Assembly (NCBI GenBank): GCA_964016885.1
Contig: OZ024766.1
Coordinates: forward strand, 9,610,001 to 9,674,000
Direction of reading: 5' to 3'
DNA from: Eledone cirrhosa
Taxonomy: Eukaryota
DNA: 64,000 nt
Position 1 is the first letter of the stretch, and each line of letters starts with the position of its first letter. The position numbers and the translations under genes were made by a program. The notes under the pieces are model-generated. The model worked only from the letters and a program-made list of their open reading frames with translations, was not told the origin of the DNA and did not search any database. Positions 10,966 through 45,015 of the stretch are shown in pieces.

Positions 10966-12209
10966 GTTACAGAAACATCATTATTGATACTGTCACCAGG
11001 TAGACAGAAATCAATCAGTAGAATCTCTAGTGATACTGTCACCAGGTAGACAGAAATCAATCAGTAGAATCTCTAGTGATACTGTGACCAGGTAGACAGA
11101 AATCAATCGGAAGTTATCACAACACCAGGTAAGGAGCAAAACAATATATTTCACCGTTCCAACCATTATATTCAACCTTTCATTTCAGAGACACCTGGGT
11201 GCTATAGTAAATATGATGTACTCATAAATTTACCTGTATTTCATTATTACCATCATCATCGCATGTTAGATTTCACAGCTCTAGCATCACTTCTTCATAG
11301 TCAGCCTACGAACCTTTCAGCCTATCCCAGTGTATACATTGAACCCATGCTAGCGTGGAAGATAGATGTTAAACGATGATGATGATGATGATATATATAT
11401 AAATATATATATAATGTGTATAAATATATATACAGAAGACCCGCCTCGTGTATAAATATATACACAGACGACCTGCCTTACCTAAGTACAAAGTGAAACC
11501 TACTACAGTCAATAGGCACCTCTAACAAAAATACACCCCCCGGCCCCACTGCTCCCACCCCATCCACACTACCCCTTTCAATGTGAAGCTATGTTGGTAC
11601 CACAACATCCAGTCTGAAACAAATGAGGTCGTGTAGGTGTCACGACAAAAAAACACACAGTCCACGCTGTAATGTGGCCGTGTAGGTAACACGGTAAAAA
11701 CCTCCCAGCCCCACACTGTAAACGTGGTTGGTGTTAGGAAGGGCATCCAGCTGTAGAAAACCCGCCAGACAGTCCACGCTGTAATGTGGCCGTGTAGGCA
11801 ACATGGTAAAAACCTCCCAGCCCCACACTGTAAATGTGGTTGGTGTTAGGAAGGGCATCCAGCCGTAGAAAACCCGCCAAACAGTCCTATACGAGCAAGA
11901 CAACCACTCTTGCTTCAAGTGGGAAAACTCCCGTCCAAACCCATGCTAGTGTGGAAGATGGACGTTAAGCGATGATGATGATGAATGTATAATAAACAAT
12001 ACAATATAATTACCTCATTACCAGAGGTTTCCCGAATAAGACGAATACAAGAAACGTCCCCATTCGTTCGTTGGACAAGGCAATTTAAAACATAGTGAAA
12101 TATTTTATTTTTATATATCTCTTGCATTACTTTTATCTATATATTTTTTTTGCCAGTTAAACTTTTGCCTTTCTTGAGGAGATTTTTCAAATATTTCACT
12201 ATGTTTTAA

Positions 12210-12285
12210 ATTGCCTTGTCCGACGAACAAATGAGGACATTTCTTGTATTCGTCTTATTCGAGAAACCTCTGGTGATGAGGTAAT
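12210..12285 (+). ncRNA. Degenerate type I hammerhead-ribozyme motif (inverted partner 12009-12084, -)
   Basis: attgccttgt-CCGACGA-...-GAAA-cc tct gg-TG-atgaggtaat; 10-bp stem I with G-U pairs. Triplet is GUG here; the partner has GUA but core CCAACGA. Confidence 0.55.
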
Positions 12286-12394
12286 TATATTGTATTGTTT
12301 ATTATACATTAAATTTAGCTCTGTAACTTACATAGAGCACTCTTCACTCCTATGACTTTTTCAATTTTCAACGGAAACTTCAATACTTATATAC

Positions 12395-12455
<61 letters not shown>

Positions 12456-12621
12456 AACTTTAATTATATCTCATAAAATAATACAACTGGTTTTTCCATG
12501 TTATACATTTTGTTAGCACCCCAAACACTTAAATTGGGTTAATATTTTAATATAACCTAATGTTTGTTGAGTGAGATGGTTACCAGTCAGAGTTTAGCTT
12601 TAAACTATCTCTGTTATTGTA

Positions 12622-12664
<43 letters not shown>

Positions 12665-12873
12665 GGTTTGAGGTTCACCACTGTATAGAGCTGGTCTATG
12701 CTCCCATCTCTTTCTGTTTTCGTTCATCTGACCGGTAGTAGCATACTATAAAATTTAGCCACGTCACTCCAGGGCGACCGGCTGAGGTTGAAGGAACAGA
12801 ATAGCGGTCACCCTCGGGTCTCGATTTTCAGCCCCATGGATTTTACCTATTACATTCACGTATTATATTTCGA

Positions 12874-12931
12874 ATACCTGATGATATCACCGGATTCATA
12901 CGGAACCCGGTCATTGAAATGATCATAGTAT
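12874..12931 (+). ncRNA. Type I hammerhead ribozyme motif
   Basis: atac-CTGATGA-(accgg...ccggt stem II)-GAAA-t GATC a-TA-gtat; AATAAA immediately downstream, then (TA)n. Confidence 0.8.
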
Positions 12932-12977
12932 AATAAACCTTTCAAGGATTTACACAAATCCAGCCTCCTGTCATTTC

Positions 12978-13014
<37 letters not shown>

Positions 13015-13261
13015 GTATATATAAAAAAAAACCATGTCATTTGTACTGCCTCTCTGTTTTTTGTTCTCTGTTCATTTATTAAACTAAATATATATATATA
13101 TATACACATATAGTAATAATAATAAAAAATCCCAAAAGGGCTCGATAAGGATAAATATATATCAAATATATAAGAACCCTAGAGCAAATATTTTAATAAA
13201 TATATATATACATATATATATATGAAATATAAGAATCAAAGAACTGTTCAAAACATTTTTG

Positions 13262-13308
13262 TGCTTACAACTGTTTCCTCCAAACCGAGGTTGGGATTCT
13301 TCGGAGCA
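13262..13308 (-). ncRNA. Type I hammerhead motif (U4C variant)
   Basis: Minus strand: tgct-CCGAAGA-(ccaa...ttgg)-GAAA-c agtt g-TA-agca. Confidence 0.65.
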
Positions 13309-13630
13309 ATTTATTAATGAATGGACAGTTATGTGACCTCCTTTTCACCCAAGAGACATACAGATACATATGCAAATATTGTGGGTCAACATTCATTACA
13401 GCATTTAGAGTGGCAGTACACACTTAGAGATTACATTCATATTAAAAGGTACAATCAAAAATCAATATATATATATAGGAGGTGAGTTTTATTGTAGCAC
13501 AATAAAGCAATGCAAATATCGGATAAGTAGCACTCAACAGTCTGGAGTATAAATAATATAAAATCAAAAGATGGTAGATTTAACACTTCACTGCTTGCAA
13601 GTGTTTTTTAAGCTTCATATCATGTCTCCC

Positions 13631-42487: not shown

Positions 42488-42499
42488 GTGAGTATGTTA

Positions 42500-43235
42500 A
42501 ACCCCTTCTCCCCCTTTTTTGGGGAGGGGGGGTGGGTCTTTCATACCCTTATCCTCTTTTTTAGGGGTCTTTCATACCTTAACAACACCTTCCTCCCTTA
42601 TCCTCTTTTTTAGGGGTCTTTCATACTTTAACAACACTTTTCTCCCTTATCTTCTTTTTTTGGGGGTCTTTCATACTTAACAACACCCTCCTCCCTTATC
42701 CTCTTCTTTAGGGGTCTTTCATACTTAACAACACCCTCCTCCCTTATCCTCTTTTTTAGGGGTCTTTCATACCTTAACAACACCCTCCTCCCTTATCCCC
42801 TTTTTTAGGGATCTTTCATAGCTTAACAAACCCTTCTCCCCTTTTTTGGGGGTCTTTCATACCTTAACAACACCCTCCTCCCTTCTCCCCTTTTTTAGGT
42901 GTCTTTCATACCTTAACACCTTCCTCCCTTATCCTCTTTTTTTAGGGATCTTTCATACCTTACCAACACCCTCATCAGTTATCCCCTTTTAGGGGTCTTT
43001 CATACCTTAACACCTTCCTCCCTTATCCTCTTTTTTAGGGGTCTTTCATACGTTAACAACACCTTCCTCAGTTATCCCCTTTTAGGGGTCTTTCATACCT
43101 TAACACCCTCCTCCCTTATCCCCTTTTTTAGGGATCTTTCATACCTTAACACCCTCCTCCCTTATCCCCTTTTTAGGGATCTTTCATAGCTTAACAACAC
43201 CCTTCTCCCCTTTTTGGGGGGTCTTTCATACCTTA
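42500..43235. repeat. ~45-bp degenerate minisatellite starting right after the PIGB donor
   Basis: Repeating 'ggggtctttcataccttaacaacaccctcctcccttatcc'. Confidence 0.88.
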
Positions 43236-43389
43236 ACCCTTTAGCATTTAAACCTGCTGTATCTGGCCAGAATTCTCTCACCTCTTCTGTTCAAACTGAC
43301 TGTAACTGGCTGATCATACTTATGTTAAGGTATTGTTCTCGGAATAAATAATATCAAAATCTCATAAATTCAATATATATAAATATTAC

Positions 43390-43420
<31 letters not shown>

Positions 43421-44166
43421 ATATATATATATAGGAGGCACATGGCACCCCACCTGGCTTAGTGCAATCGAAAGATTGTGAGTTCAATTCTCAGACCAGG
43501 TGATGTGTTGTTTCCTTGAGCAAGACACTTTATTTCACATTGCTCCAGTTTACTCAGCTGTAGAAATGAGATGATAGGGACTGGGGTCCCTATCACTCCA
43601 CTGCAAAGTGGTTGTGGAGGTGCCACGGCAAAAAAGCACCCAGCACTCACTGTAAATGAGGTTGGTGTTAGGAGGGGCATCCAGCTGTAGAAATCAAGCC
43701 AGAATCAGTTCCCGTCCCACCCTTGCAAGCAGGGGAAAGTGGACGTAAAATGAAATGATGAATGATGATATAATATATATATATAATAAAGAAGAAATTA
43801 AAAGATGGTTAAAAGAGTTCCATATATTTACCCGCTCTACTACCATAAGTATTGAGTACTCTGGTGCTTTATGGTCCACCTGGTTTCTTGCCACACTTTC
43901 TTTGTATATATATATATATATATGCGTGTATATATATATATGTATATATATATATATACACGCATGGAGGCACATGGCTTAGTGGTTAGGGTGGGGTCCA
44001 TATCATTCCACTGCAAAGTGGTCATGGAGGTGCCACGGCAAAAAAGCACCCAGCACTCACTGTAAATGAGGTTGGTGTTAGGAAGGGCATCCAGCTGTAG
44101 AGATCAAGCTAGAATCAGTTCCCGTCCCACCCTTGCAAGCAGGGAAAAAGCGGACGTAAAATGAAA

Positions 44167-44228
<62 letters not shown>

Positions 44229-44349
44229 TTAATATAGATGAGATTCTACAGGACTAGAACTGTTTCATTCATTAGAAATCATCAGGAATCCCTGCTATGT
44301 ATTGAGTACCTTACTTACTGTGGTTACCTCCGATTCAACCCGGAATAAC

Positions 44350-44419
<70 letters not shown>

Positions 44420-44789
44420 TAAATCATGTCCTTAGAATTATTAGATAAAATATATACCATTTCCTCTCCCAATTAGCATAATTAATCATATAAAGAATCA
44501 ATTAAACCTGGTCTAATTGATTTTTTATATGGTTAATTATGCTAATTGGGAGAGGAAATGGTATATATTTTATCTAATAATTCTAAGGACATGATTTATG
44601 ATATATTGCTCTGATTATTTAATTTATTAATTCTTCATTGAGCTACAACGTGACCTGTTGCAACATATATATCTATGACTTTATGTATATGTAAATCTTT
44701 ATATTTATATGTATGTATATACACACACATACATATATATATATATAATCAACAACAAAGAACGCCTATAGCATATGCATATCTTTACT

Positions 44790-44835
44790 TGCTAACATTG
44801 TTTCATCCGCACTATAAGTGGGACTCATCAGAGCA
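44790..44835 (-). ncRNA. Type I hammerhead motif, family I (left arm)
   Basis: tgct-CTGATGA-gtcc cact tat agtg c ggat-GAAA-caatg-TT-agca. Confidence 0.75.
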
Positions 44836-44969
44836 TAAAGGTTGATTACATATCACACAAGCAATAACAAATCCAAGACATTGAAGAAATAAAGAATAAA
44901 AAATAATATTCTTTATTTCTTCAATGTCTTGGATTTGTTATTGCTTGTGTGATATGTAATCAACCTTTA

Positions 44970-45015
44970 TGCTCTGATGAGTCCTACTTATAGTGTGGAT
45001 GAAACAATGTTAGCA
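44970..45015 (+). ncRNA. Type I hammerhead motif, family I (right arm; sense to PIGB pre-mRNA)
   Basis: tgct-CTGATGA-gtcc tact tat agtg t ggat-GAAA-caatg-TT-agca. Confidence 0.75.

Follow-up and report, generated by a model that had tools for sequence, protein, structure and literature searches.

Hammerhead motifs and probable Penelope-like element ends in a 64-kb stretch of the Eledone cirrhosa genome

The window analysed here is a stretch of 64,000 nt from Eledone cirrhosa (assembly GCA_964016885.1, contig OZ024766.1, positions 9,610,001 to 9,674,000 of the forward strand). Among its (TA)n tracts and other repeats lie motifs of the minimal type I hammerhead ribozyme, and it is these motifs, and the Penelope-like elements (PLEs) to whose ends they appear to belong, that we describe. 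A preliminary description made from the sequence alone had listed 22 such sites in about ten unrelated families.

Hammerhead motifs in the window

Our descriptor for the type I minimal hammerhead requires the CUGANGA core, a helix II (in which one extra base is allowed), GAAA...UH and a helix I score of at least 4; helix III is constrained at its outer A-U pair only. It matched the window 19 times, always between 12.8 and 45.0 kb and always at one of the 22 sites, whereas neither 30 local dinucleotide shuffles of the window nor the reversed window gave any match. Ten decoy cores scanned on the window gave 0-1 matches per core, and alternative descriptor settings gave 11-16 matches, where shuffles averaged 0-0.12 with at most 1. 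These 19 fully parsed motifs, whose open ends are at helix I, can thus be taken as genuine. The other three sites are decayed: 13262-13309 (-) has a U4-to-C change in its core, 28960-29015 (+) is hammerhead-like with the GAAA missing, and 18075-18112 (+) is a partial hammerhead that keeps core, helix II and GAAACGUC intact with a helix I of only ~2 bp. The positions first given for the motifs hold on the plus strand, where they fall 4-8 nt from the CUGANGA core; on the minus strand they mark the low end of the motif, and the cores lie ~33-62 nt higher.

By sequence the 19 motifs form 10 clusters, as first proposed. They are not all unrelated, since families A and C and the cluster at 32901 have one helix I sequence in common and are alike in helix III. 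Rfam reported no hammerhead among the window matches listed (150 of 329), nor among all 88 matches in five related loci; the matches listed are mostly those of microsatellites and hairpins to miRNA models.

Additional decayed or partial hammerhead-like sites lie at 7892 (+), 44285 (-), 34681 (-), 34812 (+), 47040 (-) and 46844 (+). The sites at 7892 and 44285 are 85% alike, and those at 34681 and 34812 form a diverged inverted pair.

Families linked to PLE reading frames

Seven of the ten window clusters (A, B, C, D, E, G and H) were traced through the genome, with 40 copies scored per family. First-look candidates, which are lower bounds and not copy numbers, came to 849 for A, 1295 for B, 265 for C, 718 for D, 1286 for E, 1663 for G and 1442 for H, and the best scored copies are mostly 98-100% identical.

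Five of the seven families sit 3′ of PLE open reading frames (ORFs). In A, B, D and E an ORF with reverse transcriptase (RT) plus, at the C-terminus, a GIY-YIG endonuclease lies 5′ of the hammerhead; in C the endonuclease end alone was recovered, ~1.7 kb 5′ and of Hydra type, with an inverted C end attached (one locus extended). For family A, four of seven loci with a long frame (L042, L043, L046, L047) have the hammerhead ~1 kb 3′ of a 579-715-aa RT-endonuclease frame; two (L041, L044) have a nearby A-type motif in opposite orientation, and one (L045) has none. At a further locus (L010), (TA)n is followed by an inverted tail and 3′ end and then by a 5′-truncated forward A copy consisting of a GIY-YIG-type endonuclease frame, ~1 kb of untranslated region (UTR), the hammerhead and (TA)n. 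The A endonuclease as query returned 59,832 first-look candidates, of which 150 were scored, at 86-100%. All three tandem loci retrieved for family E (L177-L179) have an RT-endonuclease frame inside a 4.63-4.71-kb unit bounded by two direct hammerheads. RT and endonuclease frames likewise precede the hammerhead in B (L180, L183) and D (L181), the latter matching Pfam GIY-YIG (E=1.5e-6) and RVT_1 (E=0.002).

Motif marks suggest that A, C and E belong to the Hydra clade. All three have a CxCX5C linker, CxxC and CxH around conserved E and N, and insertion in (TA)n; the N-terminal motifs are RRLRW (L041/L044) and SDKTN in A and RVRWR and SDKTK in E, this region not having been recovered for C. Hydra-clade PLEs are described as sharing an RW motif, DKT, the CxCX5C linker, CxxC/CxH, (TA)n as target and, near the 3′ end, a hammerhead (PMC8557442). 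The Hydra-type proteins that A and E encode had no Pfam match; in the ESM Atlas the A protein adjoins HTH_animal and GIY-YIG clusters (0.96-0.98). The supplement of Craig et al. 2021 (PMC8557442) describes Hydra-1_Obim, a Hydra PLE of Octopus bimaculoides that targets (TA)n and carries a hammerhead; compared by eye, the A protein agrees with it motif by motif. Families A, C and E and their hammerheads nevertheless differ from Hydra-1_Obim: their 3′ UTRs span 1-2.4 kb, the E unit is ~4.65 kb where less than 3 kb is published for Hydra-clade PLEs (PMC8557442), and the Hydra-1_Obim entry lists four copies that share one end site, and mentions no pseudo-long terminal repeat (pLTR), against the candidate number given above for the A endonuclease. 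Families B and D, with a CX4CxxC linker before the C-terminal GIY-YIG domain and Y(V/L)DD in the RT, resemble Neptune/Nematis-type PLEs; their placement, by linker and motif, is provisional.

The insertions have a common architecture. Window copies are 5′-truncated and often inverted pLTR ends with a PLE tail, set in (TA)n, and partial tandems forming pLTRs were seen at L010, L177-L179 and L184-L185. Within each family the commonest 3′ ends fall at two fixed positions, one lacking the tail and one bearing it, and (TA)n comes next. What recurs is a place 3′ of RT/GIY-YIG ORFs, 3′ ends that are fixed and run into (TA)n, a tail that may be absent, and partner copies that are inverted and 5′-truncated. 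This ORF linkage and the tandem, inverted and tailed arrangement bear out the placing of the motifs in PLE pLTRs in the preliminary description, and they make most window copies truncated ends of autonomous-type PLEs, not retrozymes. That description had also called them non-autonomous or retrozyme-like; truncation holds, and the rest applies to H (427 bp) and G (2.8 kb) alone. Head-to-head partners lie from 47 to 4318 bp apart, so the inversions are independent events; we rejected a fixed-structure reading of the palindromes, of the kind of miniature inverted-repeat transposable elements, on the same ground.

A head-to-head pair of decayed PLE ends with inverted arms (family P, 11984-12391) has both cores mutated and is 87% identical to an intact hammerhead-bearing copy in L053. 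Family G follows at 12655-12990 (+), with an inverted tail (12655-12699), a truncated 3′ end, its core at 12878 and predicted cleavage after 12927. Family A is present as an inverted tail plus 3′ end at 13466-13735 (+; core 13639, predicted cleavage after 13689), as a 3′ end with inverted tail at 14210-14687 (-; core 14315, H17 at 14261), as a variant 3′ end with tail at 17291-17583 (-; core 17514) and as a 3′ end at 38525-38695 (+; core 38592, predicted cleavage after 38646). A 3′ end of family B occupies 14667-15279 (-; core 14900, H17 at 14866, inverted tail 15218-15279); inside it, at 15115-15210 (-), a 32-aa remnant is 97% identical to the C-terminus of the endonuclease-bearing ORF of that family. 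The window had been said to hold no PLE ORF, which is correct for intact ones and overlooks this remnant. A second B 3′ end with a truncated inverted copy lies at 37853-38364 (-; core 38078; inverted core at 38299 (+), without helix I).

Family C, to which the Hydra-type endonuclease belongs, forms a head-to-head pair at 18219-18582 (cores 18428 (-) and 18475 (+)), a variant with tail at 18645-18862 (+; core 18660) and a 3′ end at 18891-19008 (-; core 18998); the C-related hammerhead of cluster 32901 is at 32893-32992 (+; core 32901). Family D is a head-to-head pair with 217-nt arms at 19221-19741 (cores 19438 (-) and 19588 (+)), and most of one unit of family H lies at 20089-20455 (+; core 20192, predicted cleavage after 20222). 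The F hammerhead at 15378-15483 (-; core 15431) is accompanied by a truncated inverted copy (core 15459 (+)), and that of family I is at 30370-30424 (+; core 30375). The head-to-head pair of family E, with tail, spans 44743-45170 (cores 44831 (-) and 44974 (+)), and 44740-45065 is predicted to fold as one continuous hairpin of ~155 bp (-268 kcal/mol).

Long, near-perfect inverted repeats cover 11984-12310, 19285-19741 and 44743-45065. If transcribed they would give double-stranded RNA (dsRNA), and they are possible substrates of adenosine-to-inosine (A-to-I) editing.

Proposed dimer cleavage and the families G and H

We collected 36 motif clusters, 17 of them multi-copy, from 1.03 Mb of total sequence (including overlapping loci), and over all 36 the CUGANGA/GAAA/UH core recurs together with a dimer-compatible helix III. 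Helix III is self-complementary: in the multi-copy clusters 43 of 45 inner pairs are formed, against ~0.39 expected per pair from composition, and self-duplex energies range from -1.6 to -10.5 kcal/mol. A short palindromic helix III is the form expected of hammerheads that work as dimers (PMC4209133). Similar motifs were reported in 2014 by Cervera and de la Pena (PMC4209133), who described multi-family minimal hammerheads genome-wide in truncated PLEs, with opposite-strand pairs 100-700 bp apart. Core, short helix I, extra nucleotide after A9 and palindromic helix III are the same here, as are the many families, the mostly single motifs in truncated PLEs, the opposite-strand pairs and the thousands of motifs per genome. 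Unlike theirs, helix II is often longer in Eledone (up to ~55 nt with its loop), the palindromes of helix III have 6-10 nt, and the G10.1-C11.1 pair is mostly replaced.

Very probably the 3′ pLTRs of several PLE families carry these motifs as minimal type I hammerheads, with predicted dimer cleavage in tandems, and families G and H are moved in trans. The endonuclease of PLEs cuts AT-rich DNA, and the tail reflects the use of two internal start sites by reverse transcription (PMC11167929); PLE insertions are usually 5′-truncated, with inverted partner copies (PMC8557442). By analogy with such elements, the GIY-YIG endonuclease would nick AT-rich or (TA)n DNA, and reverse transcription would begin just 3′ of the hammerhead and mostly abort early, often with strand inversion, so that almost every insertion retains the hammerhead end and few retain the ORF. 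In the transcript of a pLTR-ORF-pLTR or unit-unit tandem, the self-complementary helix III could join a pair of motifs into a dimeric hammerhead, by which the unit RNA would be trimmed; lone window copies would then be mostly inert passengers. Where two copies lie head-to-head, a long duplex would enclose the sense motif. G (2.8 kb) and H (427 bp) would be non-autonomous elements mobilised in trans by PLE proteins.

Several observations weigh against this account. Families F, I and 32901 lie outside the traced set, and among the ORFs inspected none qualifies as an active master copy, each having no verified start or carrying deletions or frameshifts. C11.1 is present in just 3 of the 19 window motifs, the canonical G10.1-C11.1 pair therefore being mostly absent (position 11.1 is U in many published Hydra hammerheads too; PMC8557442 supplement), and the predicted fold of several monomers departs partly from the hammerhead. 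Minimal hammerheads have been found to cleave weakly even as dimers (PMC4209133), and in Xenopus eight of nine dimers showed no cleavage (bioRxiv 10.64898/2026.07.22.740005). In the anole PLE, as reported in PMC11167929, hammerhead mutants still insert in vitro and no RNA-seq read ended at the cleavage site.

The insertion of these anole mutants in vitro, together with the non-canonical 10.1-11.1 pair of most families, would suit a motif retained as a structural signal (for RT binding or RNA packaging), its cleavage dispensable or its core conserved on other grounds. We consider this rather unlikely: the exact core and dimer-compatible helix III recur over all 36 clusters, the hammerhead of the anole PLE is able to cleave in vitro (PMC11167929), and in family H the catalytic positions are all invariant while the flanks vary. 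Contigs of unrecorded kind, aligned to the window H copy, list 31 variable sites over 261 nt, only four of them inside the 43-nt hammerhead; these are N7, a site in loop 2 and the two bases of a single helix I pair, where U-G gives way to A-U or G-U (unphased), and no catalytic position varies. The contigs came from four runs and served for variant positions only, low-depth contigs among them being left out of the interpretation. Complementary stems that differ between families, at first taken for strong covariation evidence, are not covariation in the phylogenetic sense, and the H variants are what supplies evidence within a family.

Family H has an ORF-less unit of 427-429 bp with 37% GC. 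It is arranged head-to-tail in 4 of 16 distinct copies, only as dimers or partial trimers, and in one such pair (L187) the core of one unit is mutated. None of the 16 copies runs into an ORF of its own; the sole PLE match within 2 kb of them is a B element, at a locus that had been retrieved on account of it. The circular fold of the unit lies well below shuffles (z = -7.4 and -10.5). H thus resembles the non-LTR retrozymes of animals, which have been defined as non-coding, highly self-paired tandem units of low GC within 150-450 bp and reach up to 120,000 copies in the axolotl (PMC7229834); a circular H RNA is a candidate only. Unlike retrozymes, H has PLE-style tails, inversions, (TA)n insertion and short tandems only.

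The G unit measures 2797-2851 bp between direct hammerheads at two loci on different chromosomes (L184, L185). In these two units there is no frame longer than 137 aa and no tblastn match to eight PLE protein pieces. A probe from the 5′ interior of G found 428 candidates, and all 40 scored copies are 98-100% identical; the window G copy bears the PLE inverted tail. Unlike the short (<450 bp), highly self-paired tandem units of retrozymes, G is far longer and not unusually folded, its circular fold (-539 kcal/mol) being close to those of four shuffles (-507 to -537). A rod-like circular RNA was accordingly rejected for G, on these four shuffles only.

Two other structures were noticed in G. About 70 nt 5′ of its hammerhead is a hairpin (L184:590-625, L043, L035; window 12775-12815) whose pairing, judged by eye, is kept over diverged subfamilies and which may be a recognition signal. 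An internal tandem duplication of ~510 bp (L184:2052-3069; 90% identity, GC-rich core) is possibly a promoter or a structured RNA.

That the motifs belong mainly to non-LTR retrozymes, short non-coding tandem units with circular RNAs that are independent of ORF-bearing elements, is a still less likely explanation. Unit length, composition, fold and lack of a linked ORF fit it in H; however, five of the seven traced families run into PLE ORFs, which already refutes it for A-E, the window has no head-to-tail array, H itself occurs as nothing longer than partial trimers, and G has the wrong length, with a circular fold barely below the shuffles. Non-LTR retrozymes have themselves been derived from PLE pLTRs, in a preprint whose main text does not mention octopus (bioRxiv 10.64898/2026.07.22.740005).

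Genome-wide scale and neighbouring sequence

A blind sample of 39 stretches of 10 kb, set at round-number coordinates on 27 chromosomes of the 3.0-Gb assembly (390 kb in all), gave 34 descriptor matches, against 0.4 in shuffled and 0 in reversed sequence and 0-3 per decoy core. The genome average is thus ~1 motif per 11.5 kb, and the window has ~3 times this density; the earlier estimate of one per 2-3 kb is right locally and not for the genome. Extrapolation puts the genome total at ~2.6e5 motifs (bootstrap 1.4-3.9e5), or 1.9e5 with helix III palindromes of at least 6 nt only and 1.1e5 with short helix II only, from a small and clustered sample and with a descriptor more permissive than published ones. 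The 2,000-9,000 motifs reported in PMC4209133, with different descriptors, are well below this total. Remnants of PLE proteins occur in 8 of the 39 stretches (L048, L053, L054, L056, L058, L063, L068, L076), so PLEs are abundant in the genome. Chance matches in AT-rich, palindrome-rich DNA, where helices pair readily and where ~3 of the 34 blind-sample matches do look accidental (single copy, short or unpaired helix III), can be dismissed as an explanation of the whole, already refuted by the empty shuffles and reversed window, the few decoy matches and the fixed position of the motif in element 3′ ends.

The concept of PLE hammerheads is established; novelty lies in the inventory of families, in G and H as elements without ORFs, and in the scale. 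We found no cephalopod-wide hammerhead survey in the literature, of which Repbase/Dfam, subscription papers and preprint supplements may cover these families; the sole octopus hammerhead found in the texts available is that of Hydra-1_Obim. In O. vulgaris 31 recently active PLE families are reported, in a main text that does not mention ribozymes (PMC13282606). Since no hammerhead stands among the Rfam matches listed and that annotation is silent on ribozymes, an inventory should be useful. More tentatively, one might combine these elements into a wider picture, which we regard as possible but less than even in probability: some 2-3e5 motifs in dozens of families, above the largest count found in print (that of the axolotl), would stem from a large expansion of Hydra-clade PLEs, and beside them would be two ORF-less elements, mobile in recent times and parasitic on PLE proteins, the 427-nt retrozyme-like circle candidate H and the 2.8-kb non-coding G; the head-to-head hairpins would bury the sense ribozyme in host introns and could supply abundant dsRNA for A-to-I editing.

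The role of PLE hammerheads is in question: they are conserved, weakly active and, in one in vitro system, dispensable for insertion. This genome offers many young families, with copies 98-100% identical, and helix III palindromes of graded strength. Having kept the motif and lost all else, G and H lend themselves to clean tests of dimer cleavage and of mobilisation in trans.

Around the motifs, the window holds parts of host genes and other repeats. A Glyco_transf_22 domain (Pfam) at 42300-42488 belongs to a gene starting near 41750 (+), which we take to be PIGB-like; the family E pair lies between two exon-like stretches of this gene. An exon-like frame at 1322-2089 (-), without a Pfam match, faces away from it and presumably resembles TMEM267. 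A common short (TA)n-flanked element end, often a fold-back, is seen at 38790-38915 and 43830-43905 and at other loci including L007, L082 and L204; no hammerhead was parsed in it. RT fragments (RVT_1) of long interspersed nuclear elements, without tblastn matches to the PLE proteins, lie at 24640-25116 (-) and 40666-41136 (+). An uninterrupted 371-aa frame of non-repetitive composition at 21622-22737 (-), for which the ESM Atlas gave no usable match, has a weak match to CARD (E=0.05).

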